This document shows, piece by piece, positions 165 through 23,100 of a stretch of 64,000 nucleotides of DNA; positions within the stretch are counted from its first letter, which is position 1; each line of letters begins with the position of its first letter. The DNA comes from Phallusia mammillata (Eukaryota). The position numbers and the translations under genes are program-made. Below the pieces are notes generated by a model. It had not been told where the DNA came from. It saw only the letters and a list, made by a program, of their open reading frames with translations, and did not search any database. The DNA is taken from positions 11,346,001 to 11,410,000 of the forward strand of contig OZ281498.1 of the NCBI GenBank assembly GCA_965637545.1. The letters are read 5' to 3'.

Positions 165-1025
165 GAGGGCTGCCACTTTTGTTTGACTGAAATAATCTAA
201 TTTGACCTAAAAAAATATCTAGAATCATCTAGATCAGAGCTCTTCAATCGGGGTTCCGTACAACCCTTTCAGGGGTTCCATGAACTTTAAGGGTTGCACG
301 GGGAGTAGCAATTCGAACACGAATGATTCATAGACATTGTTTCGAACAGCAATGCTCGCCTGTGCAATATTGTTAACCTTTGTCACACCATTGATCAATT
401 GTGATGTAATAAATACCAGCTTGTTACACTCTAGCTAAGTTGCGAGATTAATGTAGAAACGACCGATCCAAATAACACGGCAATGCGTTTCAGTTAACCG
501 TTTAATTCAAGTCAACCTTTGTGATGTGCTTTGATGTGTATGCATCTTTTTTCTTTGATGTAGCCTACTTGTATTAGGCTACATTCATTAAAATTATTTT
601 ATGGGGGTTCCGCAAAGTTTGACAAAATACCTTAAGGGTTCCGCGTCACTAAAAAGGTTGAAGAGCACTGATTTAGATTGAAAAGCAAAACATCCAAAAA
701 TATATCTAAACATAAATTAATCCAATTTAATGCAATATACTAGCTAAACAACAACACATATAAAGGTTTGTTAATATAAATTGCCTATATTAGATGTTAA
801 AGAAGCTTACTTCTTTCTTATCATCATTCTACTTTTTCTGTTACAGTTATAACATTATAACGTTGAGGGTTTTGTGTTTATCTGGGTGATACGTTTGTGG
901 ACTTGTACTGTTCCCATGGTCTTTACAAACGTAAAAAAACTATCTAGATTTTATAGCCACCAATCCCATCATCTAGATCCAAAATTTCGCATCTAGTCTT
1001 AACCAAAAAAACTATCTAGAATCTA
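165..1025. mobile_element. Degenerate copy of the CAAGGCTGCCA-TIR MITE family, interrupted by the 235-670 MITE
   Basis: 165-234 plus 671-~1025 aligns in inverted orientation to 6833-7256 (shared GAAGCTTACTTCTT, CATCTAATAT, GTTTAGATATATTTTT, GGCTGCCAC); boundaries approximate. Confidence 0.65.
235..670. mobile_element. hAT-type MITE nested in an older MITE
   Basis: TIRs CAGAGCTCTTCAA / TTGAAGAGCACTG; 8-bp TSD ATCTAGAT (227-234) / ATTTAGAT (671-678); subterminal GGGTTCC motifs. Confidence 0.85.
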
Positions 1026-1080
1026 GCTTTAAAATCCGTCATGCACTTCGTCATGCAAGCATTGCAAGTCTGCATTTTAT

Positions 1081-1108
1081 CATAGATAACTTAATTAAGT
1101 TATCTATG
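1081..1108. mobile_element. 28-bp perfect palindrome with 7-bp TSD (P-element-like footprint or mini-element)
   Basis: CATAGATAACTTAATTAAGTTATCTATG flanked by ATTTTAT at 1074-1080 and 1109-1115. Confidence 0.7.
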
Positions 1109-1854
1109 ATTTTATGTTTACTTTGGTCATGCATGAATGCGCGATGATAATATAGTAATCCAGCTCCTCTTTCCCTCTCGTTTCTTTTATTATCCTTTGC
1201 TTTTTATCACCCTTTTATGTTCGAAAATATTTAAACTGAAGTATTGCATTTTAACAACTAATGGATTGGACAAATATAATGCTTCCATGTGTAAACAGAC
1301 AATTGATCTATCTCTATGGTCAAATGACCTTCCATGTGTTATTCGTGTGTAATGGACATGTGCACTGTACTGTGTCAATCTGGTTAAAATCAGACATTTG
1401 AGCTACTGACGTTTGATATGGTTCGGGGAAGGGCTGCCTCTGAAAGAGATGTACAAGTCTTGTACTACAAGAACGAAAATACGTTAGATTTGCTTGTGTT
1501 CGCGGCCCCACTGGTGGTTGTGCTAGTAGACAAATTCGAGCTAGTTACTGTTCGGGCTTTTCATTGTCCACGAGATACGGGCTTGCTGGGATGCCAAATG
1601 CAGTCAGTATACTGTAACTGAACGTCTGTATTCAGACGATATCCCTACTTTGTTTCGGTTCTTAGCCAGCTGTTTGTGTGAGAAGTGAGGACAGATTTGA
1701 TCTGTTTGCTCCAGATTGCATTTTTTCCTGTTTTATCACACAGTGTGTCTTTTTTGGTAAATACCGTTTCATTATTGAGCTGGTTTGTTGTGATGCAGAT
1801 ATGAGATACGTTTTAGTTATTTTAGGTTTTTAACGAGGTTCTGTTTTCACTACA

Positions 1855-2496
1855 ATGGAACCTGTGAGGGCCCACTATTGTGCCTTAAGGTATTTTCGCA
1901 ATGCAAAACTTGCTTGTAGTCATGAATGTTTTATTGAACAATGTCGGAAATTTTCTTCCAAAAGCTACACCGCCTTAACAAGAAGACAACTGAAGCAATA
2001 CTGTGATGTTTTGGGAGTATCTGTCACGGCTTCAGAACCCAAAATTAAACAAGCCTTTTACAGAAAGAGCTTACAGCTGCATCCAGACAGAAACAAAAGT
2101 GTTAATTCCCAACATGCATTTACGGAGATTTCAGAAGCTTATCAAGCTGTTATAACATACAAGCGAAGTGGTAATGAAGACTCTAAAAGCCAGCAGACAT
2201 GGAAGCGAACTACTGAAATGAATGGGTTCCGTCCTTGGGCTAAGGTTCCTGAAAAAAAGGGACCCCCACCACCTCCATTTGGAGCAGGTGGTGTAGAACT
2301 TGATAAACATGTAATAAGGCACCACACAGCTGATGAAGCTTCATTAAAAGTGGAAAGCAATGCTGGGGATTTTTGTAATGAATTTTATATTGAACAGATG
2401 GAAAGGGACTTTGAAAGATATCACATGGAAAAGTTAAAAAAGCAGAAGGAACTTAATGAGGAATCCACCAGTACTGGTGCATGTGTTATAATGTAA
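1855..2496 (+). CDS. Small J-domain (DnaJ/Hsp40 class C-like) protein with C-terminal CaaX box
   Basis: 213-aa single-exon ORF; J domain YCDVLGV...IKQAFYRKSLQLHPDRN...FTEISEAYQ with HPD motif; ends CVIM. Confidence 0.85.
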   Translation: MEPVRAHYCALRYFRNAKLACSHECFIEQCRKFSSKSYTALTRRQLKQYCDVLGVSVTASEPKIKQAFYRKSLQLHPDRNKSVNSQHAFTEISEAYQAVITYKRSGNEDSKSQQTWKRTTEMNGFRPWAKVPEKKGPPPPPFGAGGVELDKHVIRHHTADEASLKVESNAGDFCNEFYIEQMERDFERYHMEKLKKQKELNEESTSTGACVIM

Positions 2497-2564
2497 TGTT
2501 TTAAAATGTTTATTTATTTTATTGCTGTATTCGTAAAACATTTTATTTATTGAACATTTTAAAG

Positions 2565-2939
2565 CAGGGGTGTGCAACAGGCGGCCTTCTTCAGAGAGTT
2601 CAGCAAAATTTTCCACTAGATTTTAGTAAATCTCTTTAAGTTGCTATACCATACGAAACAAGTATAAGCTAAATCCAGCGTTTTCCAACTGGTGGGCCAT
2701 ACAGCAGTTTGCAAGTACTTCACCAAATGTTACATAATAATTCCCTTTGTCTAGTAAGCAATTATTTTGTTGTGAAACCCAGTGTTGCGGCGAAACTCTA
2801 TACATTTTGGAATATAAAATGTATTGATGCTTTGGAAGAATTTCAAATTTATTATGTGCATGAAATAAATTTTATGGCCCTCGCTTGATGTGCAAAATTG
2901 GTTATATGACCCACCGAGGAAAAATGTTGCACACCCCTG
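2565..2939. mobile_element. hAT-type MITE just downstream of the J-protein stop
   Basis: TIRs CAGGGGTGTGCAACA / TGTTGCACACCCCTG; 8-bp TSD TTTTAAAG / TTTTGAAG. Confidence 0.85.
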
Positions 2940-3805
2940 TTTTGAAGTCTAAGGCAATTTTAAATAGTATTTACTTGTTCTAGGAAAATGTGTTTTCTTT
3001 TGTTTTAAAAAAGTGAGTTTTAATTTATTTAGGTATTAGTGGCTTGCATTTGTTGTAAAACATTATTTGTTATCAAGTCACCTGATCTTTGTTTTTCGAG
3101 TGTCTCTCCTTTTAAAACAATTATTTGCAAATATATTTTTGTGTTTTTTTCAAAGCCAAACTTTACAAATAGGCAAGGAATCCAATATAAAACTAAAATG
3201 GTAGCTGTCCTATAGATTTGTTATTTTTGTCGTATTTAGACCAGATGTACATCTGTTCCCTAAATCTTATCCACAGAATTGTTTCTGCAAGCAGGGATTG
3301 ATGGCACATATACTAACATATTGCAGAGAATGGGCTCCACAGCAATATAGAATAGCCAGTCTGTTGTTTTTCTGTGCTTTATTGAAGGTGATTATGCAAT
3401 GAAGCAGATATGCTAAACAACACAAAAATATACAATGGGCATGACATAGTTCACACAACTATCCCGTGAATTAAAAGACATTACTGATGCACAAAAACTT
3501 TAGAGAAATATTTTTAAGCAGTCACATATTGCATTGAACATAATTTAAAAATCTAAGCATCTGCCTCACTGATTGTTCAAAACCTTGTACAATTTAAAGT
3601 CATTGCTGTTTGATATTTTTAAATGGGTAAATCTACTAATAAGAGAAATTAGTACACCAAACATATATAGTATAACACCAACTGACCAAGTTCCACAATT
3701 TGTAACTCTTGATACTTTACTTGATTTTATGACAGCTTCAGGGCAATCCGGAAAATCCTGCCATTATTTTTTTAAATATCCATCATTACCTTTGTGACAA
3801 ATCTT

Positions 3806-4747
3806 TCAAGACCATTTATAAGGGAGTTGTTGATTTCCAGATGAATAAGCATTTGGTGGAAATCGATTCTGTGTTGGGCCTGGAGAAAAGTGGCTAGGAT
3901 AGGGGTACATGTTTTGTTGAGAGTTAGGGATTCTGCCTGGAACAGGTGGTGGAGAGACAGTTGATGACACAGGAGGATTTCTTTGAACATCCAACACCAA
4001 CTCTCGCATTTTATCGGTTTTTATGCGGCGCATGTGTGCAAGTGTCCGTTTGGCCTTAAAAGTTGACATAAATTCTGCCAATTGAAGTTCACCCTCACAG
4101 AAGTCTTCTGCCAACTTCTAAAAGTAAAATCATTGTCAACAATATATTTGATTGTTAAATTCCATATGGTACCTCTGACTGTTCCTCGGTTTCAGCACAT
4201 GTGGTTTGTAAAACTGCCAGCATTGTTTCTAAATTAACATCTTTGTGCAAAGAATCTGGACAAACATTTTTGCTATTAATGTACTGAACTCTTTTGGGCC
4301 AAGCTTACAACAAGAGAAACAGTTTTGATCAAATAACTTGAAAACAACCTCTGCTTACCTAATTTAGCCTGGTTTGTGTTGAAATTATCATTCAGCTCCT
4401 TTAATTGTTCATATTTTAGTGCCAATTCCTCACGCAGTTCTTTTAATTTGGGTTCACGAGTAATGTTGTGGTCTGCTATGCTTCTATTTTCAGCTTGAAT
4501 CAATTCTCTGTCCAACTTAAGCTTTTTAATCTATTTAATAGAATACAAAAAGAAATCTGGAAAAATTCAACAGTCGAATTCAAAGCACCTTCTCATTGTC
4601 CATGACAATTTCATTTATTTTATCCTCATTGTCCATTAATTCCTGAAGTTCTTCCATAGATGCATCTTCTAAAAGTGTCGTAAAATCAATTTCATCTTTA
4701 GGTACATTTTGTCCAGGATTGGGGTATTGGTAACTCCACTGAGACAT
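3806..4747 (-). CDS. VPS37: ESCRT-I subunit VPS37 (Mod(r) domain, proline-rich tail)
   Basis: 4 exons (4747-4589, 4530-4359, 4255-4173, 4117-3806), all GT-AG and in frame; LEDASMEELQELMDNE, NRSIADHNITREPKL, EEQSEKLAEDFCEGE, FKAKRTLAHMRRIKTDKM; PPPVP-rich C-terminus. Confidence 0.9.
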
Positions 4748-5543
4748 GACTATTTGTTACTTTTAAATCAATGGCCAAGAAAGAAGCCACCCATGTATGT
4801 AACATGTAACAGTTTACCCCGTTAATACCTAAAGCTGTAAAATAATACAAAATATATGATTTAGGTGTTTATTGTTGACAGTCTATTTGTTACACAACAA
4901 GCAAATTTACAATCATAGAAAACAGACAGCTGTAGACGATGAGCGATGTGTTGTGGTAATTATTAGTGGAAGTGCATAACTGAAGCACATAACGCTGCAG
5001 ATGTGAAAGTGACTGTTGAAAACACAATTGCTTATTTACTTAATAGTATGCAGTACGGTACTCATACTCACTGACAAAGCCTGTTTGACTCAACTATTCT
5101 TGGTCACGTGAGGGTGAGTCGTCCTGTCCTGTGTCGTCACAAAGTACCAACCTATGATAGTCATGCCGATTTATAAAGTATCTTTTTAACTACGAACAGA
5201 ACAGGCAGCCCATTCCGTTTATGAAAAGTTTATTTGACAAAAAGAGAGGCGGGTCAAAGGCAAATTTTGTCAGTTTATCATCTTACCTTTTGAGAAAAAC
5301 TAAACACCCTTTACCTTTCGAGAAAAACTAAAAAATCAATTTGAACAAAAGTATTTTTTTTTTTATGTATTTATGTTTTATTAGGCGGATATCAATATAA
5401 TAGTATACAAACTGTAATTACGGTTTGCATTTGTCATTTCGTTTTGCAATTTGACATAGTGCCTGCTATTTTGTGGTCTAGTTTTTGTGTTTGGGGGAAA
5501 TTATTCTGCTATAATGGTTGATGGCAATCGACAACTTACCACC

Positions 5544-6711
5544 GTCATTTCGCCGAATTGAGAATCGAACTTTTTTGTGGGAAATTTTGCAATTAAACTG
5601 ATTACCACATACCAGTTTCAAATTTTATTTTTAGCTTAATACATAAATTATTATTTTTTGGGGGGTTACGTCATAACTCGGATACGTCACACACATAATG
5701 ACGTCACTATGGCATCATCATAGAATTCTGAAGGCCTTCAAAAAAACCTCATTTTGCGAAAAATTCATCGTAGCGAGCCCAAACTTTATTCATGACGTCA
5801 TCATGCCTTCTCATGACGTCCCAAAAAAATGACGACAATCGCTTTTCATTATCACATCATTTTTAAATCTCAAACAACGTTTAAGCCTGTGACGCGACCA
5901 ACCAGAACACAATCGTTGCGTCCCTGCCGTAAAACATACGGTAGGCTACCATTGAACACTCGTTTTGGATTTTTTTCCAATTATTTTCCTCGTTGTTGTT
6001 TTTTTAATTGTTTTTTTTTCCATAATTTCGTTGTTCGTCAAACTTTCGAAAAATGTCAACTGAGCTGGGGCCCTTTGAACAAATGGACCACTTTTAACCA
6101 CTGGGGGTAGGCTAGACTAGTGTTTTATAAAGTCGTTCGTCCGCTTTTTATTGCAGAAATGGATAGTACTCTGGTATATGTTTTTAAAACACTTGTTAAA
6201 CTTTTTCCTTCGGGGCCGGAACATAATTTCGTTGTTCGTCAAACTTTCGATAAACGTCAACTTTGATAGGCCCCCTTAAGCAAATTGGTCATGTTTAAAC
6301 GCTAGGGGTGGTACGTTGTAGACATATTCGTCCGATTTTTATTGCTGAATTAGATAGTAGGCTACCCCACTATATGTTCTCAAAACACTCGTCAAATGTT
6401 TTTCCCTCGGGGCCGGAACATAATTTCGTTGTTCGTCAAACTTGTCTAATTACGCTTGAGACATATTTGACCTTGATTTCACTTTTTCACTCATTTTTTG
6501 AAATTTTGGTCATAAATCAATAGTTTTCAGATGAATTATGCTTGAAACAGTGTTCGCTACTGACAATCACCAAAATTTGTAATGTGTATTGTCAGAATCG
6601 TTATTTTGCTTCAGTCACATGAGAATGGCAGAATCAATCCGTTATGTGGTAAACTGCGAAATAAAAAAAATTCGTCGATATCGTTTTTGAGTGTCATTTC
6701 GGCGAAATGAC
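5544..6711. mobile_element. Non-autonomous TIR element with internal ~200-bp tandem repeats
   Basis: Imperfect TIRs starting GTCATTTCGCCGAA at both ends; CATAATTTCGTTGTTCGTCAAACTT recurs at 6021, 6222 and 6419; no clear TSD. Confidence 0.55.
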
Positions 6712-6832
6712 ATTTGTGACAACTTCCTGCAATCAGAAAACCGAAGCATTTGCAACAATATTTGAGGTATAATGACAAGTTACAAGTTGATGTGGCATCT
6801 TCACAAGCAAGAAGCACACCTACACCAGCTAC

Positions 6833-7256
6833 CAAGGCTGCCATACGAGATATATGGAGCTATATCAAGATAGTTTTGGTTAAGCCTAGATGTAAAACTT
6901 GGGATCTAGATAATGGCTATATAATCTAGATGTTTTTTTAAGACCATAGGATTAGGAACAGTACAAGCTTACAAAGGTCCCACCCAGATAACCACAACAA
7001 TCAACATCAATTGCAAGTTGCAACAGAAAAAATAGAGTGATGATATAGGAAGAAGTAAGCTTCTTCGACATCTAATATGAGGCAATTTGTGTTAAAAACC
7101 TTCATATGTGTTATTGTTTGGGTAATATATCATATTAAATTGCTTTATGTTTAGATATATTTTTAGGTTTCATTTTTCAATTTAGATAATTCTAGATATT
7201 TTATGAGGTCAAACCAGATTACCAGATTTCATTCAAAGACATAGGTGGCAGCCTTG
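6833..7256. mobile_element. MITE (CAAGGCTGCCA TIR)
   Basis: TIRs CAAGGCTGCCA / TGGCAGCCTTG; second diverged copy at ~165-1025. Confidence 0.7.
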
Positions 7257-7837
7257 ATCTATACAAACAATTGTTTCTACTATTGTACTGAAGAGCCAAG
7301 TTTACTTCAAACTGTAATAATTTGCTGCTTTAACCTGCACAATTTTGTAAAGTTTTGGTATTTTATGTAATAACACTAACTCTATGCAAACTGGAGTTTG
7401 TTGTTTTGTAAACAATAAGTATTTGTTGGGTTTGGTTATGACTTCCTAAATTTTGTTTCTTAATAAATTATACAAAACAAACAAGTTTACAGGATTTGAC
7501 CCATTTTACAGAGTATTAATAGCTCTTAAGTTGCAAAAATAGACTTTAATTTACCAGCTAGCTTTGTTTTGCATGAATAGGTAGTACTATGCAAAAGCAG
7601 CACAGACAACAGTTAAAACGCAAACCTTTCAGTTCCTCAGGAAAAGAATTGTGAAAACTACTGTGGGTTAGGCTACAAGACGCGAAAATTCCGTTTACAG
7701 GAAATAACTGTAAATATAGCTATAGCTAATCCTGTTTGTATTAATATTGAGTGATTAAAAAAAAACTTAACTGGGATATACTTGCTTTTGTTACACTGGC
7801 TAATTTGCATTCTGTTTTAGATCTACTCGTTTTTATA

Positions 7838-8842
7838 ATGAAGATAAATGATAAACATCTTGCTAATTATGCATCAAGCAAAGAACTACCGGACAAAGAA
7901 GGTTGGCTATGGAAAAAAGGGGAAGTTAACACAAGTTATCAAAAGCGATGGTGTGTTTTAAGGGGAAATTTGTTTTTCTACTTTGAGAAAAGGTATGATG
8001 AACTTTCAGGTTTTGGTGTAACATTTTGCTAATTTATTCGTGTCAATTTATGTTTTTGCCAAGACAAGATAAGGAACCTATAGGTGTAATTGTCTTGGAG
8101 AACTGTTCAGTGCAATTAGCTGAGGGAGGAGATTCTCCATTCACATTTTCAATTCAGTTTGCTGGTGAAGGAACTCGGACATACAAATTAACTGCTGATG
8201 ATGATGACCAATGCATGTCCTGGGTTAAAGTGTTATCTTCATGCAGCTATAGGTGTGGAAAGCTATTTATTGTTTCTAAGCAAAATAAGTTGTGGTTATC
8301 TTGCTTGCAGATATTTGGAAATTTTAGTAGATGCATTACAAAGGGAGTTTGACACCTTAAACAGCAATCGTCACAATAACCTTGAAATTCAAGAGCCTTG
8401 GAATGCAAATTCTGCACTTCCTTTATCATTAACAGAAAACCATTTCTCTCAGCACAAGTCCAGTTCTGTCAATAATATAGCTAATATGGTTGATGATGAC
8501 AATGACAATTTTATGAGATTTGATGCCAGTAGCGAAGATTTATCCACAGTTTCCCCCAAACTTAATCGCTCACAATCTACAAATGAGTTGTCAACATCTT
8601 CTCTCAATGTGGGGCAGATGGACCAGTTAAAACCTGTCAACAAAGCAAAGAAACTGAAAAAACTAAGTCCCCACTTGGGTAGGAAAAAAGGAAACAAATA
8701 CAAAGAACGTTCTTCTCCATCACCAACACAGTCGAATCAGAATGGTGTGCTTGATGAAAATGAATATGTATTTATTGAAATGCACCAACAGCTATATAAA
8801 CAAATACAAGCGTTTGTTGCCAATGTTGAGTCAGCTGTATAG
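7838..8842 (+). CDS. PHETA: Sesquipedalian / PHETA (FAM109) PH-domain endocytic adaptor
   Basis: 3 exons (7838-7992, 8064-8252, 8311-8842); MKINDKHL start, PH domain DKEGWLWKKGEVNTSYQKRWCVLRGNLFFYFEKR-QDKEPIGVIVLENCSV; C-terminal F&H motif FIEMHQQLYKQI (OCRL-binding motif of this family). Confidence 0.9.
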
Positions 8843-9655
8843 TAAACGTACGATACTCTGTGCCTTAACCATCAACCTTCTGACTGCTGCTTAGTAAAGA
8901 AAATTCTGTTTGTTGTGTCTAAATGCACATTTATTTTGGCTCATGAAATGGGTATAAGTGAAAGTTCTAAACATAATAATATGCTTTACTATCACCGTCG
9001 ATCATAAAAAAGTATTACAATTGCAATTGAATATACCAGTTGGTGCCCTTTACTTATGTATAGCATTCCATGCAGATAAGCAAACAAATAGAAATGCTGT
9101 TTTTTCTTATACTTATATATCACTATGTTCTTCATTTTATGATTTTTTAAAATCAGTATGGCATTTCACCACACCATTATGGCATTATTTTTTCATTGAA
9201 TCAGTTTTGGTTTTATGGCAGTCCAAATTTTCTGAGATATTAGTTTTTTCTGCAAACTGTGGTGATTATGTTCAAAAAACCTCAAAAAACAACACTTCAA
9301 AAAAGTAAGCACTGTATTAAACTTTTACTTTGGTAAAACCTTCCATCAAAATATAAATCATTGGTGAATTAGCATATCATTGGTCTGTTTTTTTAACAAA
9401 ATTGTGTATGGCATTGTGTTTAACTGAGATGATAAAGTTGACAAACAGTTATGTCAGTTTTGCGGCGTGACAAAATCAACATGACTAAAGTTCACTTGCC
9501 TGTTGTATTAACTTGCTGACATTGCTAAATTACTAGATTTTTTTAATGTGTCATACATTATTTTTAGTTCTACTGTATTTCATTCATATGCATAACATCT
9601 TGTATTTTTTCAATAAAAAATCATATCTCTTACAGTTCTAAGGTTTGTTGGCAAT

Positions 9656-10934
9656 ATGACTGCTAAATGCAATTATTTCTGGAAAAGCCAGTCAGGAAAT
9701 GCTATTCAGTACATGAAATGTTTTAATGGCAAGTCATTAAAACTTGATGGTGGAAAAAAGCTCACTCAACTTTATGTGATAATTCCAGGCAATCCTGGGT
9801 GCATCCAGTTTTATGAAAAGTTTGCTGAGGAACTTTGTAACTTGACCAATAATCCTGTTTGGGGCATTTCTCATTCTGGTCATGCCAGATGTGGAAGTGG
9901 AATGAAGCATCCAGAAAAAACTGACTGCGGCTTGCAAAAGCAAATTGAACACAAAGTTCAGTTTCTTGAGGAGGATGTGTTTCCTGTTGCAGAAAAAGTC
10001 TTTCTAATTGGTCATTCTATTGGGACTTACATCATTTTGCAAATAATGGAAAGATTGTTTGGTAAATATAAAAATGAAGTGAGGGGTATTTTGCTTTTGC
10101 CAACCATTGAAAAGCTGCTTTTGTCACCGAATGGACAAAAGATTGTTTCACTTGTGCACAATGAAAGATGGTTGACACCTATTGTATCTGCCACTTTAAA
10201 TGTTTTGCATTTACTACCAAATGCTGTGTTGGACTGCATCTTGCCATTTTTTGTTGAGGTAAAGGAGTTTTATGTTTCCCACATAAAACAACTCTTTAAA
10301 TAGCTTTTATTTCATTTTGTTTTGAGAACTTTTATCTTGAAATGAGTGTTTTGTGTGATTGTGAAATTATATAGCTTCCTATTTTTGAACTTGTACGTTT
10401 GTTTTTGTTTGGCAGACTAAAGAGGAGTTTATTTTAAGCACCATCAAAGACAACATTTCCCCAGATGTTGTTATGTCAGCCATGTACATGGGATTAACAG
10501 AGATGCTTGAGGTGAATTGCTGCTTGACATTATCTTTTTTGTACAAAAGAGTTTCAGCTTGTAATGTAAGAATGTCTTGATTGAAAAATAAGTCCATATG
10601 TGATGATTCTAAATTGCAAAATTAAGTTTTTCCAAACACAGTTAGGGACTCAGTATAGGACTTCATAAAACTAGTTGTAAATTGCTTTGCCAAAACTAAC
10701 TTGTTACAGGTTACTGAAAGAGAAGACCACATTCTTGACAAGCATATTGACAACCTAGTGTTTTACTATGGAGCAACAGACAAATGGTGTCCAGTTTCAT
10801 TCTATGAATCTATGGTGAAAACACATGGGCAACGTAATAATATCATGTTGTGTCAACAGAACATCCCTCATGCTTTTGTACTGACTAAAAGCCTCGAGAT
10901 GGCTAAAATTGTGGCATCTTTTGAAATGAATTAA
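9656..10934 (+). CDS. LDAH: Lipid droplet-associated hydrolase (alpha/beta hydrolase)
   Basis: 3 exons (9656-10258, 10416-10511, 10710-10934); IPGNPG, SHSGH, nucleophile GHSIG, LLLPTIE, FYYGATDKWCP, PHAFVL. Confidence 0.9.
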
Positions 10935-12263
10935 ATCTTTTACATTAATTTACTGCATTTATTTTAGTGTTTCAATTTAAAGCCCAGATTATTTGATCCA
11001 TTCCAATGTCTAAATTTGTGTGTTGCAATATTTATTTTTATCTGTGCACTTGACAAACTGTAGGTAAAACTTGATTTTTAAGAGATACATTTTAGAAATA
11101 TGTGTGAAAATGTGCCATACAAAAGTGTCAAAAAATGTTGTTCAATTTATTATTAGTGGTTGGAACTATTATGTCATAGAACCTATTTTTAATGTGATTT
11201 AAAAAAAGTATGAATCAGATGCACTTATGATGACATGATGCAAATTGAAAAGTGACATTTTTGTTTGCCGAGCCAAATTTTCGAATGTGTTATATGTTCT
11301 ATAAGTAACTTTGTTGATATATTTATGCCAGAGTATTTATTAAAATAGATTCAATTTATTTCAATTATGACTGAATTTTTATAGGGTGTCCTTTTCCAGA
11401 TTTTTTTTACAGAACCATGTTAACAATAACATGCAACAGTACTTGTAAAATCCAAAATTTTAGGTATCAAATAAATGTGGCATCAGACACACTACAATGG
11501 TTAAGTTGATAATTATGGGTTCCCGTTACTCATATACATGATGCAGGAGTTTTGTACTACCATTTGATGCATTTTAAAGTTTTTTTTTAAATGGTTTTGT
11601 AACTCTTAGTTTAATTTACCCATTTTTCATCTTCAATATTCTTTTTTAGGTTTACCAGTCCTTCAGGTCAGAAATACAACTCTTAATGTGCTGAAATATT
11701 AAACAGTGTTTTATAATAGGCCTACCACATGTCCTCCTTTTAACAAAAAAGGACAGAAAATTTGAAAAAATGCCCGAATGTCCTCCTTTTTTGAATTTTC
11801 TAAATTTATTAAATATAGATATGACACTTATACCTTAAAAAACAGCAAAAAATATGTCTTCCAGTTTAACTTGTAAAGAAATATCGGCGGATTTTACATA
11901 GCAACTCTGTGACAAAATGAGTTGCAGAACGTAAAACTTCATCCAAACTATTCTAAATAAAACTGAGAAAGCGGTTTTGACTAAGTGGTCCAATTCGATT
12001 TTCTCTTCACCTGTCGTTGGTTGATTTTCGATTCCGAGGCGTTAAATTAACAACCAAAATTGGTTTTCTACACTTCTGTTTTTTGTTCCGCCCAATTTAG
12101 TGTCGTGGTGATTCTCGATTGATGCCTTTGTATGAAACGCATGTGTGAAATATAACGTCACCTGTTGCACTCAAGACTGGATAGTATTCAATACTCGTTG
12201 ATAGTTTTATAACTTGGTACGCATTTTTGCATTATCAGAACCTTTGCAACATTTAGGGTTTGT

Positions 12264-12413
12264 AGAGCTCTTCTGGCAAATGTTATTTTATTCAGACGTC
12301 ATGTACAGGTATTTTACCCCGATGAAGACAACCTGTATGGGACGTCGAAACAAAATTACATTTGCCAGAAGGGCTCTACAAACTTGATATTATGCCTGGC
12401 AGCAATTGCTTCT
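12264..12413 (+). mobile_element. Short inverted-repeat plus tail insertion (Penelope-like architecture, degenerate ribozyme core)
   Basis: Imperfect arms ~12258-12310 / 12331-12383; 30-nt unique tail 12384-12413; 13-bp TSD ATTTAGGGTTTGT at 12251-12263 and 12414-12426. Confidence 0.6.
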
Positions 12414-12833
12414 ATTTAGGGTTTGTGATACTATTTTTTATGTTTCCTATTTAATTACTTCGTCTCAGGCTTAAAGTCACGATTTTTTTGCAACCAAGAA
12501 AGGTCCATCAATTTTCTATTTATTTTCTGTCACAAGGCATGCACTATGCATGCAATTGATGTTTTTAAAAAACAAAACAGGTTCGTTCTATCAACACTCT
12601 GATTTAAATCATAATACAGACTAAAATCATCCACAGCAAAACGTTTAAGGGAAAAAGTTCACATGTCACCATGACAAGAAATTAAGTGCACATGAACAAG
12701 CTACAAAACACTAATTTGCATAAATGTTCAACTACAACAGGAAATTCCTGATCTCATCAAAACCTTTCCCATAAAAAGAATAACTTGGGCTATACACTGC
12801 ATCAACAAAAACAATTTTTGGGCTTCACATATG

Positions 12834-15800
12834 TTAAGGATGTTTGGGTTTGCCATTGGAAACGTTTTTCTCGTTTAAACTTGATTCCAAAAGAATTTTA
12901 ATGTCATCAACAGCTTGTTGAAGTCCAGCAGCAAATTTTTGGGATCCAGTGTCTGGGCAACTTTTGAAACTTGTAATGAGGCATGACACTGCAACATAGT
13001 ATTAAATTTATTCAGACAGTGATTATTCAAATTGCCACCATCTACATATTTAGTACAATAAATAAACAGGCCAGTATTTAAGCTTGTCCCCAGTACTTGG
13101 AACTAAGCACCTCATTACATGCTTTCATAGGTTAAAAAAAATGTCAGTTCATTAGGTAAATATATGTCTCAAATAGACATGTTTAAAGATTGCTTGGTGG
13201 TCAGGGTGGAGTAACAGTCTTATTAGTGGAGTTCAAGCCAAGTCTCATCCGATTTGATTGGCAATACAAGTCAAGTCGGAATTAGTTTAAGACTCGCTGT
13301 TAACTTTTATTTTCTGAATTAGGAAAATCACAGTACGCCAGGCCCATTGAAGGCGCTATACCGAATCAGCCGGTCACCAAGCATTCACCACCATATGGCA
13401 AGGCGTAGGCCAGAAAAATCTAGCCTGCGGTGGGATTCGAACCCACGACAGGAGTCTTTCCGGGACTCGCGCTCTACCAACTGAGCTACACAGGCTCAGT
13501 GGAGAATCCGCCGAAAGTCGAATCACAAGCACCGTTGCCTGCCTCGTATGCTGCACATGTCAGCTTCGTAGTAGGGGATCGCCAGATTGACCAGTATCAG
13601 TTAAGATGAACATAAATTCATAACTGGGATCAGCTCTGAAGCGTCTATGCAGACCAGCGATCACGGCACACTCATATATAAATCACAGTATGCCAGGCCC
13701 ATTGAAGCTATACCGAATTAGGAAAAAGTTTTTATGAAACTCCAACATTGTTAACAGTGGTGCATTGCAAAATATAAAATTCTTAGCGATATGATGCATG
13801 AGGTGATTATTAAGACACAAGTTTTCTTCTATTGTTAGTGCTTGTGTACAGTACTTAAAAAAAGCCCAAGCAAATAATTCAGTACAAAAAATAAACTTAT
13901 GCTGTTTCTAAAAATGTATGACACAGGTAAAGAACTTTTGAGCATTACCACTGACATCATCCATGAAATAAGCCACCCCATATCCGTCCTGACGTTGTGG
14001 TCCAAAACCACCACCAACTGGGTCATATGGAGTGATTTTTCCAATGACAGAATCATAGCGAAGAGGAGATTGTGATGTTGATAATTCATCAGCCTCATAA
14101 AATGGCTAAATATACAAGAAAAACATTTAGGGTTATATAGTCATAGAAAGTAAGCTCTGAGTGAATCTTTTGTCCTCCCATTTTAAGTAAATCTGTGATT
14201 GAAAGAGAGTTTCCAATAGCATTTAATAAGATTAAATTAATTTTCAAAAAAAGCCTCGGAGCATTAAAAATCTATTGTACCATTGGCAAGCTGTTTTAAC
14301 ACAACACACTTCTACAATATTTAAAATCTTACCCTCATGGTAAATAGTTTTGGAACAGATCCAGATAGTTTACCAGCAATGTACAGCCCAAGCAAATGTC
14401 TGTCAACTGCCCTGCCATTCATAGCATCAAACTTGTATTGAGTTTGATGAATGATTGCTTTTTTAAGATGGTCCACCTTTTTAGCAACTGATACATTTGG
14501 ATCATCAAATGCCTGGAGAAGATTTAGGTGGGTTACAATTAAGTCTTATGTAACAAATTGTTTGCTGTACCTTTGTAAACGCCACAGAATGTTCAGATAC
14601 AGGTCGAATAGTTTCTGTTCGAGCATTCTTGAATAGCCTGCAAAGTTAAAAGTAATTCTAAACTTCCAAACATAAGTTAAATTGCTTAACCACAAAAACA
14701 CATCCACACAGCCAAACTTTAACTCCTCCTGTATGTTTTAGTTTAAGAAAAAAACCATTTTTCTGAGAATATAACCTTTAGCTTTAGTCAGACTATTTGT
14801 GCCAGAAGCCTATTTAAAACTCCTATATATATTTATTTTTAATTGCCCCCTAGTTTGTAAAACCCTTGGTTGTTTCTTCAGGCGCCAACTCATGGAAAAA
14901 ACAATTTAAAGCAAGTACATAACAAACACAAGTGCCAGTTATAATGACTGTATCTACCAGCCATAAAAGTTTTAACCAAATCCATTTTTCAAACCCAAAA
15001 ACATGGTGAAATTAAGATGTGTCCTGATTAGTGAAGTGGACCCATATTCATGCTTAACTGTTTTTTACAAAAAGTCAAAGTTTGCTTGGGTCATCTTTGG
15101 ACAACTACTTTGGAAGCAAGAAGCAACATTTCTTGATCGAACATGTGGACCAAACCGTGATTGACAGAAAATTAAACACGAGGAAACCCAATGTTTTTTA
15201 GTCGAATTGTAAGTAAAATTCATCCAAACCTTGTAGCAGCTGTTTCATAGGTTTTGGGAGTTTTTTTGTGTAATCTGTAAAATGTGAGTTGTAAAGCCAT
15301 TTGCATGTAGCCATCAGGACTGACTCGTAATTTTTTTATGAAACCCTTTCCCTTGTCCACAAAGTATACAATTGCATCCACATCATCAGCCTAAAATCAG
15401 TATAAAAGAATGGTTGACCAATGTGAGGAATTGGTTGTATTTTGATTTGGACACCAACACTAATAAAGTATCTTCCAATAAATTTGTTTATATTCTCGTA
15501 GCCAGTGTTTGCAGCCCCTTTGGTCATAAAAGTGTGAAGTCATAAAGGGGCAGAAATTAGAAAAAAAGGAACTTATGCCTTAATAAAGGCGAATATGCCT
15601 TAATAAAAGATCAAAAATTCGAAGAGAGACAGTAGATAAATTGTTTAAACCTTACTCATAATTAAAAAAACTGAGTAAAGCAAACTTAAGGGTAACCGCA
15701 CCAGTTTATCCCAATCAGATTTCATATCAGCAATATCATCTTCAAAATCATTAAGTTCCCATTGCAGTCGCTGGGGAACAGGTATTACAGTGTGTTGGGG

Positions 15801-18800
15801 TATGTTCCGGTGGGTTGCATTGCCAGAAGAATCATACTGTGCATGATAGAGTCCATACTCCCACATTCTACCAGACAGCTACAAAATTAAGATTGGATGA
15901 TTCTCTCAAAATAAAACCACATCAAAATTGAGCCAACAGTTACTTACAGTGGCTTCTGCAGATGTGTGTTCAACATTGTAGCCCATAGCACCATTTTCTT
16001 CAGTAACAAATGTCATTGATTTGTCAAACCAGCGATCAAATCCGTTTCCAGTTAGGTATGTTTTAAATTCCTCACTTTGGCTCTGTTAGGGAATAAAAGA
16101 CAGTATGTTTTTCAAAAAACAGAATTTTGAGAAGTTTTAATAAACCCACAGTAATGCATCAGTGCTTGTGCTTGCACACATTTTACGTGATTTGCTGTTC
16201 AATCCAAAACTAGGCTTCACTCTAACAACAAAAAATTACACAAACTAGTGTCTAACCAAGTATAAGAGCAATTCAATGCTTCTTTTCGTCCAGGGCAAGT
16301 TTTTAGCCTGTGATTTGCAAAAACGTGCATTTTGTAATAACAGATGCTGGACACCATTAAAACAGGATGGTTACTTCCTGTAAATAGCATGTAACTAAAA
16401 GTAAACATACTATACATTTTACAAACAGCCATGTTTTATGTAGACCAGACATTCTTTAATAAATGGACAGCTTTTACGTGACTAGTTGGTGAAAAACAAC
16501 ATTTTAAAGTCTAAAGGGCTCATAAAACTATGGAATAGAATAACTCATGCAAGAGTTGGTAACCTTTTAAACATTATGAGCAAATTTACATTTTTAATAT
16601 GGTGATGACTTTGTGTGTCAACATTTGTGTGTAATAGTGGTTTGTGCCAGTTGTGACCATTAATCAGAAAATAGGCACATTAATAATTTTAAGTTGCATT
16701 TTTGGTCCTGCTCAATCAAAACTAACCGAAATCTATGTAAAAGGTTTATTTCTATTTAACTTAACTGATTCTATTTATTTTGTTATGAATGGTGGTTAAC
16801 TAAAAACCCAAAATTATTCATATTGAGACATACATACCTGAGGCCGCCCATCACCTAATGCAAGACATACAACAGCACTTTCAACAACTTCAAGACTCTC
16901 TGCATTAATTTTGTTTTTTAGCAGCTCTTTGCGAATCTAAAGTGTAAGTTTTACTTGCATAAGTTAATTGTATTCAAAAGATCTTTCATATACAAAGATT
17001 GATACTTTGAAACAGTGGACATAATTGAAACAAAACTGTAAACATATATACACAAATATAAACAAACATATATATATACAATATACATATATTAAATTTT
17101 AGTGCTTCTTCTACTACATGTTATGTAATAATTAACAAAATACACTGTTTACAAAGAAATACATTTATTGGATATATATATATATGTTTATTGACTAATT
17201 TTTATTGGGTCCCCATATTCATTTACAACATGTTTGTTTAGGCAACTTGATTAAGAAAGACATATTAATGAAAATGAATTTACCAAAATTTACCCAAACA
17301 TTGTTTGCATTGCCCAGAAACAAAATCTTTATATTTTTATGTATGTCGCCCTGTTATAGGGTATTATGAACGTATTTGTTTACCTGAGCCCACCTTGGTC
17401 TGGTGGTGGATGTAAAAATACTGGGGTTCAATATGTCTTTGTCAGACTTAGTTTCAACATCTTTTGCATCCTTCATCAGTAACTCAAGTTGAGTTTGAAT
17501 TTCTCGTGGTGTCAATATTGTTTCTTTACCATTTACATCAGTTGCAAAGAGATCAAGTCTGTACATCGATTTTTTTCTGCAGAAAAAACAGCCATTTTAC
17601 ATTCTGTAGCATGAATAATATGTTTTTTAGGTTAATTTGTTGCTTAACAATGTTGCCAGTATAAAAGTAATGAATTTAATCCTGATTAAGCTGTATCACA
17701 TTCAAAATAATACATGTACCTGAATACCACAATGTGCCGGGAATCTGGGTAAGTCTTAAGCTCATCAATTGCTTCACCAGGTATTCGAGTTGTTGAACAA
17801 ATATACTTGTATCGATCACAGGAAATAGGAACCATGTTTTGTATCATCATGTTAGACAACTATAAAGGGTAATTATTGCAATTTTTCACGACAGAAATGC
17901 AAAAAGTGATATAATTGTTGACTTACATTTCCATCCTTAATCTTTTGACTGTATTCCATGAAGCCAAACATGATGTTAGCTGCAGAGGGGACTTGCTTGT
18001 TTGTCGGATCATTATGATTGAAATTCTTTTCACCATTGCAACTAAAGTTGGAATGCACTAAATCAAGGATGGACACAATGTTAAATCACAAATGTGCAAA
18101 GTGCTAAACATTTCTAAACATAAAATTGCATTGTTTTAAATTCTACATGAATTTTACCTGGTAGTGGACCGCGTCCTGCTAGATAAACATATTTGTCCCA
18201 CAGCTCACTCATCCAGTTCTCCTCTGTTTCATATCTAAAATCAGTTTAAGACAACCCTTTAAATAGCCATGCAACAATAAAAAAGCAATAGTACCTCTGT
18301 TCAAGTATTTTTTGAAGCTTTGGTCCTTCATTCTTCTGAAAATCCCTTAGTACTTTTACAACTGACAAATATTCTTCATCCGTCAGAAGAGGTTTAATCA
18401 TTTTTAAGGTTCTACACACAAAACACTTAATATTTTACAAACATATTATACAAAAAGAAACAAAGGAAACATGAAAGTACATTTGCAAACTAATAAGCTA
18501 TATATATGCGAAACAACATAAAAAAAAACAGAAACAGTTTGCCTATATAATCATTAATATATTAAACTTTTGCATGGGAAATTTACCCTTTGCTTAAAAC
18601 GAAATAGGAGTTGCACAAAGTAGATTTAATACCGTACCTTTCACATGTGTCCTCAAGCTTGGGCAAGGGGTATTTTGGAAGGTAGTCTTGGAATGAATAC
18701 AACATATTTTTCTTGGGAACAAGAGAAGAAAGCAAGAAACCCCAAGCCTACAATAATCCAACAAAATTACACATATATATTAGTTGTTACTTTTTTTTGT

Positions 18801-20154: not shown

Positions 20155-23100
20155 TCATCTGTAATGTCTGTGTTTGCTTTTACCACTAAGTAAACCGGGT
20201 GTGGAAGTGAAGGCAGCTCCAATTGGTCGCATTTTCAACGGATCTGCTGTTCTATGCGACATATGGAGGTTGATGCGCCGGGAAAGATCATGCGGTGACA
20301 CGTTTGCGTTGTGTTTAACATCAAGGGGGAAAAATTCATCCATCTTAAACGAATCAGTTCTTTCTTGGTAAACAAGTTTAGTTTGAGTTCTATGCGAATT
20401 CGTCGCTAAACCGGAGTTTCCGTTTATATCCATGTGCTGGGCTTTGCGGTTGCTCGTTTTATTTGATTCCTTGCCTATTTTTTCCGTGCGAGAACCCTTT
20501 CTATCAGGACCCTGCACACAGATAAACAGGAAAAACTTAATTATTTCGATTCTAAACCCCTACAATTATTACTGTGACTTAACATTGTCATATGCAATGC
20601 AAGAAATACGCCCCAGGCATTGCAAAAGTTGCAAAAGAATTTCGAGTGTTCTGTGGGCGGAAATATCGCCTGCTACGCCGGCGGCCAAAAACCGTCATGT
20701 ATTTTGGACAGTCAGCAAATAACTAGTTTAGAGTTATTTACTATCCGAGAGAGAAATATATTACTACCGACATAAAAGTTTGCACGAAAAAATAAATAAA
20801 ACATGCGTCACCTTGACTATGTTCACGGTTTATTAATATGTAACTACAGTTTTGTCTACCTGTTTGGGTGTACTTGGCGGCACACCTAGTGTATTGTTTC
20901 TCAGGGACTTGAGGAGCAATCTCCAGACGATACCTGCTCCACCAAACATTACACCTGATACTGCCCAAAACGCAAGGGGATTCTGCCAAACATGACAATT
21001 ATCATTAATTTTTTAGTTTTATAGTTGAAAACTTCTAAGGTGACTTTTATTCGTACGCTTTTGTCAGTATAAATATTCAATTCTACGATTTATCATATAG
21101 TCTACATTATGTGACATACTGCTTTGGAACACTATATACGGATCTGTTCATAAGTTTAATGGTGAAAATAACGGCCCAAATAGACGTAAAAAACGACATG
21201 CTTTATTATTCAAACGTTTCGGCAAATGTTCATGCCATCATCAGTGATATGAAGGCCACATCAGTTACACTCGTTTATATACACTTGAGTCGCAAGAAGG
21301 AATGATAAAAAGGTGCGAAACAAGCGTCGCATCAAAAACGATGAGTATTTGCCGAAACGTTTGAATAATAAAGCATGTCGTTTTTTACGTCTATTGGGGC
21401 CTTTATTTTCACCATTAAACATACTGCTTGTTTTTGAATTTGTTAATATACAACTCTGTTAATATACAAAAGCACTCAATGCTGAATAGAGCAGCAAAGT
21501 AGAAGGAACAACTACAAATGTAGCGTTGCACGCGTGGTCGTTGGAACAATCCAGGGTTGGACGGAAGAAAAAGAAAACAAATATGCACGAGTATAACCTA
21601 ATATGTTTACAATGCAATCAAACATCAGGTTTATTTAAAAACGGAGTAAATACAACTAAAGCAAAAGGGAAAAATGTTAAATCCTAAATATAGCTCAAAA
21701 CGGTAAAATATAGTTCTACCCGTTAACAACATAGTTAGAAAGGTGTCTTAAGAGAACTGCAAAAAAGTTATTCACCTCTTCCCACGATGAGTCAAGATTC
21801 ATTCCAAACGCCATTCCAAGCATTCCAAATATGGTACAAGAAAACATACCCATCGTTAACTGAAGGTCGAGACGCAGAAGCAAGTTGCGGTGACTACAAA
21901 ACAACCGGAATCAAAAATGAAAACGCATCATTAAACACTGGTACCTGTCGAGGTTGATTAAAATGGCAGTATTTGAATTTTCGATTGCTTCTTTCAACTC
22001 AACAACCTTGTTGGAAATTTCTTCCGCCTGTTGAAGTAAATGTATTTCATAGCACATCTGGTAACATAAACATCATGAAAAGAAACCACAACAACAACGT
22101 CATGTAACCCGGGTTTACAAAGTTTGCAACAGATTAACAAAAATTTAGAAAAAATTTCAACAATCTTGTGAAGATTAACATGCAATTTTGTTGACACTTT
22201 TTATTTAAAATCCACGTACGTCACGGAGAAACGAATCAATTAACGTTTCCATTTCGTCTTGTAAGTTGATCTTGTATTTTGGATCAATACGTCGAGGTAA
22301 CGACATCCCGGATTGATTGTTGTTGTTAATTCCATCTGAATTGGAATTGTCCGAAGTGGGCCCACTTTCGTAAGGGTTAAAAATAAACGCGTCGTACATA
22401 GATCTAAAAATATATTTTTGTACGTGCAACGAAAAGAGATGTACCGGTAGTGTCTTTTGTTTGGCAAAACAAAAACCTATGCTTTGCATTAGGAAATGAT
22501 TTTCAACAAATTTGCAAAAATGGTTAAAGCGTGGAAAGTTACTGTTTTTTACCATCTAAGTCGGTGGTTATGGTTCCAACGCTTTTTGTGGTAACAACCT
22601 CTTTTAATAGATTTTTAATTTTATAAGAATAATTGACGAAGCAACAGCGCTTCCTAACCAGAATCAGTCAACAAATGTTATTTAACGATATATATTTCAC
22701 CCGTAAGGGCATCATCAGTCGTCTTATTCAAATTGATTCTATTTGAATAAGACGACTGATGATGCCCTTACGGGTGAAATATATATCGTTAAATAACATT
22801 TGTTGACTGATTCTGGTTAGGAAGCGCTGTTGCTTCGTCAATTATTCTTACAGATAATTCACTATTTAATCAGTGATCGTCGACAGAAGATGCCTACTAT
22901 TTACGGGAAAGATCCTGTAATAAACACTAAATGCCATTTTTAATTTTATATGAGGATTTTTCCAGCTAATCTTCTGTGATTGTAAATATTGCAACAATAC
23001 AAAAATAGCGGTGGTACTAAACACCGCATGCTACCGCATGATAGCGCGTTCTACCGCATGTGACCGCATGGTATACCGCATGTTATCACACAACAGGAAG

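Follow-up and report, generated by a model that had tools for sequence, protein, structure and literature searches.

Background

Penelope-like elements (PLEs), including their non-autonomous forms, are characterized by 5' truncation, partial tandems that form pseudo-LTRs (pLTRs), inversions and short tails (PMC8557442, PMC8969392). When purified, the protein of one PLE nicks DNA at A/T-rich sites and initiates inside the RNA at a stem-loop, for which it does not require hammerhead cleavage, the initiation site being non-homologous to the target (PMC11167929). Non-autonomous PLEs such as MRC1 and other Chlamys elements, as well as the Naiads, resemble the element reported here in the pLTR partial tandem, in head-to-tail multimers, in 5'-variable and 3'-preferred ends and in polymorphic insertions, and the Naiads likewise lack hammerheads; a complete tRNA-like Pol III unit like that of our element is, however, not described for any PLE in the accessible text of that source (PMC8557442).

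Several other groups of short elements show partial likenesses. The SINE-like repeats Sm-alpha and Sj-alpha of schistosomes share a short tandem unit whose Pol III promoter lies elsewhere than at its 5' end, which makes tandem copies necessary for transcription, but Sm-alpha is cut by a hammerhead, whereas our element has none and carries a complete cloverleaf followed by a T5 (PMC6765202). The animal non-LTR retrozymes are alike in having a unit of ~350 nt that occurs both in tandem and dispersed, with target duplications of >4 bp and a proposed PLE partner (PMC7229834, PMC7761336, bioRxiv 10.64898/2026.07.22.740005). They differ in the type I hammerhead of each unit, which is their defining part and is absent here; the word 'tRNA' does not occur in the accessible text of the retrozyme preprint (bioRxiv 10.64898/2026.07.22.740005). 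Cassandra, Helenus and Ajax (TRIMp3) also use a small-RNA gene within a short non-autonomous retroelement as Pol III promoter. Cassandra RNA extends from a start within one copy to an end within the following one, which makes it terminally redundant, and the tRNAs of Helenus show a frequent conflict between isotype and anticodon, but the TRIMp3 have true LTRs that hold the small-RNA gene, a PBS and a PPT, and a target duplication of 4-6 bp (PMC10886601). The tRNA-derived SINEs, finally, are short, present in >100 copies, and combine a tRNA module with A and B boxes with a target duplication; our element differs from them in its internal tRNA, the lack of a simple-repeat tail, the partial-tandem insertion and a terminator close behind the tRNA (SINEBase, PMC3531059).

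The element lies in a window of 64,000 nt of the ascidian Phallusia mammillata (contig OZ281498.1); all positions below refer to this window. A protein encoded in the window shows 98% identity with a database entry of this species. The element works like Sm-alpha, Cassandra and the retrozymes, yet departs from each of them on a defining test. Among tRNA-derived SINEs of ascidians, Cics-1 of Ciona is said to belong to this group, reportedly since the work of Simmen and Bird in 2000. Helitrons and Helentrons are not known to leave a target duplication of more than 2 bp and have defined rolling-circle termini. Our search of the literature yielded no paper that describes an element of this kind in its title or the opening of its abstract; Repbase, Dfam, preprint supplements and most subscription journals lay outside that search and may contain the family.

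Structure of the insertion

The features of the locus are collected in Table 1. The insertion is oriented in the sense of the carnitine O-acyltransferase gene, in the intron before the last coding exon, and is present as a single copy within the window. It consists of 387 bp between two occurrences of a 12-mer, just as the initial annotation had stated, and its GC content is 0.52 against 0.35 and 0.34 in the flanks. The 12-bp duplication overlaps the element by 3 nt at the fixed end and by 4 nt of continuation at the other end, so that the part that belongs to the target only measures 5-12 bp. A poly(A) or simple-repeat tail was looked for in the insert and not found, in line with the earlier reading.

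Table 1. Features of the insertion and its host intron (window positions)
Feature	Position	Strand	Basis or remark
Host intron, carnitine O-acyltransferase gene	12989-13948	-	960 nt including the insertion
Left 12-bp target duplication	13316-13327	.	Last 3 nt are also the fixed end of the element
Complete 355-bp unit	13325-13679	-	In tRNA sense it starts at 13679 and reaches its preferred 3' end at 13325
8-bp inverted repeat enclosing the T run	13407-13426	-	Upstream arm takes in part of the acceptor 3' strand
T5, candidate Pol III terminator	13414-13418	-	Sole run of at least 4 T in the unit, either strand
tRNA-like gene, full cloverleaf	13422-13495	-	GGA at 13461-13459; ARAGORN, Rfam, folding
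Pol III B box	13434-13443	-	Motif match
Pol III A box	13477-13488	-	Motif match
Further hairpin, upstream half of unit	13593-13628	-	z -4.15
Stem-loop over the unit junction, preferred end in U/A-rich loop	13664-13695	-	z -3.4; candidate reverse-transcription start signal
5'-truncated second unit (pseudo-LTR), last ~40 nt of the upstream unit	13680-13718	-	3-nt deletion; also in run X6
Right target duplication	13715-13726	.	First 4 nt are the continuation of the element (microhomology at the variable end)

The insert had been described as bounded by terminal direct repeats of ~40 bp. A repeat is indeed present (13325-13369 versus 13680-13721; 45 columns, 88.9% identity, one 3-nt gap) and its spacing gives a period of 355 bp. 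Furthermore, contigs of the family (see below) run on past 13707 into the unit and go-back joints of 335-354 nt occur. Given this continuation, the joints and the period, the 'terminal repeats' are a truncated, partial second unit and not LTRs, and the partial-tandem structure that had been proposed for the element is borne out.

The tRNA-like gene

The cloverleaf was expected in the middle of the element and not at its 5' end. It was recovered there by ARAGORN, which calls the minus strand from 13495 to 13422 as Ser(GGA), by the Rfam tRNA model, which is covered completely at 55.3 bits (gathering score 29), and by folding, where it is the structure of minimum free energy (z -2.38; 4 of 200 shuffles were as good). 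In the window copy around 220 nt of the element precede it. The claim that all stems are paired holds for the cloverleaf as a whole, but one acceptor pair is a U.G wobble. The deviations from a regular tRNA that had been noticed can all be read in the sequence: the anticodon loop is CCGGAAA, with a C at position 33 and no U33, the D and anticodon arms are separated by two bases, which implies an extra base before the anticodon stem, and the GGA is accompanied by a variable loop of 5 nt. The canonical eukaryotic tRNA-Ser has U33, one base at position 26 and a long variable arm, none of which is seen here. Considering the absence of U33, the gene is probably not a decoding tRNA.

The A and B boxes were assigned by their match to the Pol III consensus. 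The T5, which had been placed directly behind the tRNA, starts 3 nt behind it. Boxes and T5 are compatible with the promoter function for which the tRNA fold was suggested to be retained. As to the origin of the gene, BLAST against phage and plasmid sequences gave generic tRNA matches of mixed isotype only (80.6% identity over 67 nt with annotated phage tRNAs) and no hint of an ancestor. An exact 23-nt tRNA pattern had 0 matches in metagenome and viral contigs, and a degenerate pattern of the arm layout had 6 in metagenomes, 0 in viral contigs and 7 in prokaryote genomes, and these 13 comprise neither tRNAs nor element copies.

Family size and polymorphism

To estimate the size of the family, contigs from four public runs (24 are listed) were aligned to positions 13100-13950; X1, X3 and X5 are DNA runs from three studies. 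The numbers of aligned contigs were 12,306, 9,861 and 12,776, and the summed contig depth of the unit relative to the flank was 9,182x, 10,507x and 17,400x, respectively. Short contigs overlap, and the largest possible correction for this, derived from the word length, is 31-fold; it brings the ratios to 296, 339 and 561. The copy number is therefore between hundreds and ~17,000 (bounds 296-17,400). The depth ratio in the fourth run, X6 (~115), and a dip at 13535-13592 were left out, as this run is RNA by guess and its contigs carry neither level nor strand.

In X1 and X5 a single contig depth (98.6 and 21.5, respectively) spans both flanks, the right pieces beginning at 13715, mid-record, and in X3 the match of one record stops at 13315, while its remaining 90 letters explain the depth up to ~13804. 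We read these patterns as an empty site with a single 12-mer in all three runs, the corresponding joint not being among the 15 listed of 681. The contigs of X6 contain both junctions of the filled allele. Empty site and filled allele together imply that the insertion is polymorphic and that the target duplication is real. The element is a recently mobile, polymorphic and abundant non-coding repeat family, and with the high contig depth and both alleles at hand the initial annotation of a non-coding element that is present in many copies, has moved recently and duplicates its target is supported. Two outcomes had been named that would count against it, namely a single-copy locus or copies that all begin at the tRNA 5' end; neither was found.

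Ends and joints of the copies

The largest row of loose contig ends lies at 13325 in each DNA run (205, 166 and 200 contigs in X1, X3 and X5, respectively), where the ends have a median length of 236-255 nt and an agreement of 0.43-0.45. In X3 and X5 the plurality sequence next to this position agrees with the unit for a further 9-11 nt, so that some of these contigs represent continuation of the unit or carry a short extension. Four of the 15 joints listed (of 681) return to 13325-13327, from upstream points that differ between 13661 and 13675. At the tRNA 5' end (13495), no row is found among the best six per run that were considered (the smallest of which hold 58, 48 and 64 contigs; the table has 2,048 further rows). 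Aligned contigs show dispersed flanks as well as head-to-tail joints, array lengths being unreadable from contigs. In short, the copies share a preferred end at 13325 (3' in the tRNA sense), are arranged head-to-tail and vary at the other end. The circularly permuted ends that had been anticipated do not agree with this, as one end is preferred among the copies, which fits a defined start of reverse transcription better than random permutation.

The part of the unit that comprises the tRNA and everything 3' of it has 1.4-1.5x the depth found upstream of it, and the two upstream bins nearest to the tRNA reach 0.76-0.93 of the tRNA-plus-3' depth. This near-even depth indicates that short, tRNA-headed copies are not the main class. 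One joint between opposite strands (13468/13664) is present in all three DNA runs, among the 15 joints listed of 681. A break at 13414, where the T5 ends, is shared by 87 contigs of X5, whose flanks are mixed (agreement 0.39); the position is not among the best six rows for X1 or X3. The break hints at Pol III-terminated templates, but homopolymers break alignments anyhow.

RNA folds, variation and ribozyme searches

A sliding scan of 89 windows gave three hairpins with z <= -3, a value that none of 150 windows of background reached; they are the stem-loop over the unit junction, the hairpin in the upstream half and the inverted repeat around the T5. For the hairpin in the upstream half of the unit (Table 1) a common variant exists, recognizable by loose ends at 13623, in which the inner arms are kept and the loop is altered. 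The inverted repeat pairs without a mismatch when position 13411 carries the majority letter of the family, and the circular unit as a whole folds better than shuffles (z -2.4 for minus, -2.9 for plus). Acceptor pairing is predicted at 0.99 in T5-terminated RNA versus at most 0.02 in read-through RNA, which could make the T5 region a switch. The stem was equally abolished by 85 of 200 shuffled 22-nt trailers and, in another test, by 117 of 200. In the whole unit none of 40 arm-shuffles rescued it, and in the fragment from the tRNA to the end shuffling of the downstream arm alone restored it in 73 of 100 cases; a perfect 8-nt complement equally close arose in 63 of 200,000 shuffles, a post hoc comparison. 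Since shuffled trailers often abolish the acceptor stem too, the prediction is weak, and a switch between T5-terminated and read-through forms is to be regarded as a lead, not a result.

The analysis of variation covers the 30 variable sites listed (22 further rows lie outside the list). Only one of these falls in the tRNA, which makes up 19% of the length (p 0.013), and it is the U.G to C-G change in the acceptor, at 20% of depth in X1. When five sites at 13670-13676 that look like an artefact of the junction edge are dropped, the count is 1 of 25 (p 0.033). CpG variants number 0 of 6 inside the tRNA versus 8 of 15 outside (p 0.046), and a count restricted to sites of at least 5% in X1 gives 1 of 17 (p 0.13), again among the sites listed. 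These figures are suggestive of a tRNA body that varies less than its flanks, the statistics being weak.

The initial annotation had proposed an Rfam scan, which returned the tRNA and, by gathering and E-value thresholds, no ribozyme in the element. A scan for hammerhead motifs across the unit junction, on both strands and with the letters of the window as well as the majority letters, gave none, and neither did a scan for HDV-like motifs with a self-made descriptor that had no positive control. A link with nearby ribozyme elements had been considered as well. Such elements are present, as PLE-type hammerhead fragments with inverted arms at 21151-21423 and 22624-22850 of the window, but they have no significant sequence similarity to the tRNA element; the resemblance between the 3' part of the unit and the hammerhead element at 22745-22852 is not above chance (34 of 500 shuffles as good in the best case).

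Relation to known classes

Compared with the PLEs, the element shows a full unit with a truncated tandem copy (pLTR) and a common 3' end with variable 5' ends at an A/T-rich target, where it should be kept in mind that 13325 is partly unit continuation and that the target was judged at one site. With regard to the inverted 5' segments and the tail of 30-40 bp, one opposite-strand joint among the 15 listed of 681 was seen and an extension of 9-11 nt is hinted at. The hammerhead in the pLTR, a property of most clades except Naiad, is lacking. By structure the element would qualify as a non-autonomous PLE, with a putative autonomous partner.

Membership in the retrozymes or Sm-alpha is excluded by the lack of a hammerhead and membership in the TRIMp3 by the lack of LTR, PBS and PPT; moreover, compared with TRIMs in general, the tRNA lies outside the repeat, which is a truncated second unit, TG...CA ends are missing and the duplication is 12 bp versus 4-6 bp, or 5 bp if both microhomologies are assigned to the element. 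The size (a unit of 355 bp, thus <1 kb), the number of copies (296-17,400, at least 100 being required of SINEs by SINEBase, with 166-205 contigs ending at 13325) and the tRNA similarity (55.3 bits; 80.6% over 67 nt, where SINEs have at least 60% over 60 nt) are those of a SINE, but the 5'-terminal tRNA head and the 3' simple-repeat tail are both absent, which excludes a canonical SINE. The target duplication, supported by the empty allele, does not correspond to Helitrons or Helentrons.

Proposed mechanism and alternatives

On balance, we think it somewhat more likely than not that the element is a non-autonomous retroposon whose RNA, multimeric or with redundant ends, is copied by target-primed reverse transcription. 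The enzyme would probably be Penelope-like, and the tRNA would act as a Pol III promoter within the unit. Source loci of at least two units would be transcribed in the tRNA sense, in the simplest case by Pol III that starts from the boxes of the tRNA, and occasional read-through of the T5 would produce terminally redundant or multimeric RNA. A Penelope-like RT/endonuclease would then nick an A/T-rich site, the A-run of the target could pair with the U-run that the junction hairpin carries in its loop, thereby priming cDNA inside the RNA, and the RT would copy a full unit plus part of the next. Joining of the far end via the 4-nt microhomology would leave a 1.1-mer between the duplicated target, and the tRNA would be retained as a promoter, not as a decoding adaptor. 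Nevertheless, a Pol III start at the tRNA should yield mostly short tRNA-headed copies, and since these are not dominant an extra step is needed: templates with the upstream half would require that the T5 is read through twice in arrays, that Pol II reads through the unit, that a circle serves as template, or that the RT jumps from one redundant tRNA end to the other of an RNA like that of Cassandra. It counts against a Penelope enzyme that the element has neither a hammerhead nor similarity to the two hammerhead fragments of the window, and that the window copy has a 3-nt target match at its start, where the start described is non-homologous (PMC11167929). The more general proposal of the initial annotation, a non-autonomous retroelement derived from circular or tandem RNA, is supported as far as mobility, non-coding nature, target duplication and partial tandem are concerned.

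A bolder version, which we put forward as doubtful, is that the element represents a ribozyme-free, tRNA-centred class of retro-parasites. Here the cloverleaf would replace the hammerhead as promoter and as processing site for host enzymes, the T5 hairpin would determine whether the RNA becomes a short tRNA-like product or a long mobile template, which may be circular, and Penelope enzymes would carry out the insertion. If this were true, the short product would mimic a GGA tRNA, in abundance but without a decoding role.

Slightly more doubtful still is a ribozyme-free retrozyme, in which a host enzyme (RNase P, RNase Z or a nuclease specific for the anticodon loop) would cut multimers at the tRNA, monomers would be ligated to a 355-nt circle and an RT would copy slightly more than one turn. 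Against this, the ends left by RNase P and RNase Z (5'-P, 3'-OH) are not known to suit RtcB, and in read-through RNA the acceptor 3' strand may be drawn into the 8-bp inverted repeat, a weak prediction given the 85 of 200 shuffles mentioned above. The fairly even depth across the unit, without a dominant tRNA-headed class, is in favor of a circle, as are the fold of the circular unit, which beats shuffles on both strands, and the stems besides the boxes, which seem conserved, the common tRNA variant turning U.G into C-G. Size and 1.1-unit structure also match the model for animal retrozymes (PMC7761336).

We consider it unlikely that the element is a permuted SINE, that is, that read-through RNAs of tRNA-headed SINE arrays are cut or primed at the U-rich junction and inserted by an RT of the L1/Tx1, RTE or CR1 type. 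LINEs, too, are marked by target duplications such as the 12-bp one here, by nicks in a T-rich context, by microhomology at either end and by sporadic inversion, and the 87 contigs of X5 that end at the T5 with mixed flanks resemble processed Pol III transcripts. Such an origin is difficult to reconcile with the lack of a poly(A) or simple-repeat tail and of a pile-up at the tRNA head, and partial tandems are a mark of PLEs, LINEs being without terminal repeats (PMC8557442).

Spread at the DNA level has, in our view, a smaller chance again. Units of a tandem satellite or of an array of tRNA-like genes would be excised as DNA circles, or rolled out by an enzyme of the Helitron/Helentron type, and integrate through microhomology-mediated repair. 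Head-to-tail joints are present, the microhomology at both ends cuts the target-only duplication to 5 bp, and a hairpin near the fixed end is a rolling-circle feature as well. Nonetheless, the empty allele is clean and the target is duplicated in the filled one, whereas Helitrons are not known to make a target duplication, and random breakage of circles would not predict a preferred end. That the family consists of host-useful non-canonical tRNA genes, for UCC decoding or as a small RNA, with the dispersed copies as orphons, is very improbable, for despite the complete cloverleaf, boxes and terminator and the low variation in the tRNA body, the gene has C33, an extra base before the anticodon stem and a GGA that lacks the long variable arm of tRNA-Ser, the usual anticodon for UCC in eukaryotes is IGA, the conservation is explained by active mobility and the arm layout has no homologue among the 13 metagenome and prokaryote matches, none of which is a tRNA.

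Implications

A practical consequence is that annotation tools will label hundreds to thousands of copies as tRNA-Ser(GGA). SINEs are defined as LINE parasites with a tRNA head, and the small PLE parasites described in the sources cited here are marked by hammerheads. If the preferred reading of Penelope-type insertion is true, an active family whose unit encloses an intact tRNA gene would join the two as a Pol III-driven PLE parasite without a ribozyme. As the family is abundant and polymorphic in an ascidian for which several studies have released public DNA runs, the features that a Penelope RT recognizes in trans and the need for a circular RNA in partial-tandem insertion are directly testable.

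Genes and repeats in the window

The remaining features of the window, including a voltage-gated potassium channel gene and several diverged or tandem repeats, are listed in the table below. The match to the Rfam family K_chan_RES at 49096-49212 scored under the gathering score of that family and represents coding similarity.

Genes, repeats and hammerhead elements of the window
Feature	Position	Characteristics
Diverged repeat pair	671-1028 and 6858-7253	opposite orientation; 76%
Partial-tandem repeat, further example	6021-6443	~2.1 diverged copies, ~200-bp unit, 76-98% identity
Second inverted element	21151-21423	arms of 83 nt, 94% identity
Intact minimal hammerhead core, one, within 21151-21423	21244-21217	minus strand
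Inverted hammerhead element	22624-22850	two inverted 113-nt arms, 99% identity
GC-rich 11-bp repeats, MITE-like	42989-43361	two clusters ~340 bp apart
Voltage-gated potassium channel gene, exons	47726-49254	Pfam Ion_trans
Tandem repeat	57745-58146	158-bp unit, 1.9 copies (93% matches), then a long A-rich tract

The tRNA element within the host pre-mRNA

The tRNA element (13316-13726), which carries an internal tRNA-like cloverleaf and resides in an intron of a carnitine O-acyltransferase gene, has the same sense as the host pre-mRNA. The intron RNA thus contains the cloverleaf, and this predicted substrate could be cleaved by RNase P or Z.

Hammerhead elements and the spliced leader

A direct comparison of the tRNA element with the inverted element at 21151-21423 recovered no sequence relation between the two. 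Within the other hammerhead element (22624-22850), both arms combine a palindromic stem III with a minimal core of the type I hammerhead. The start of its right arm (22736-22751) is identical, in 16 of 16 nucleotides, to the commonest Ciona spliced leader as given in Table 1 of PMC1488885. Throughout the window this 16-mer has one exact match and one with two mismatches (expected: 0.14). The match is suggestive of an origin from a trans-spliced RNA, in which Penelope-type or retrozyme RNA would have undergone trans-splicing before reverse transcription.
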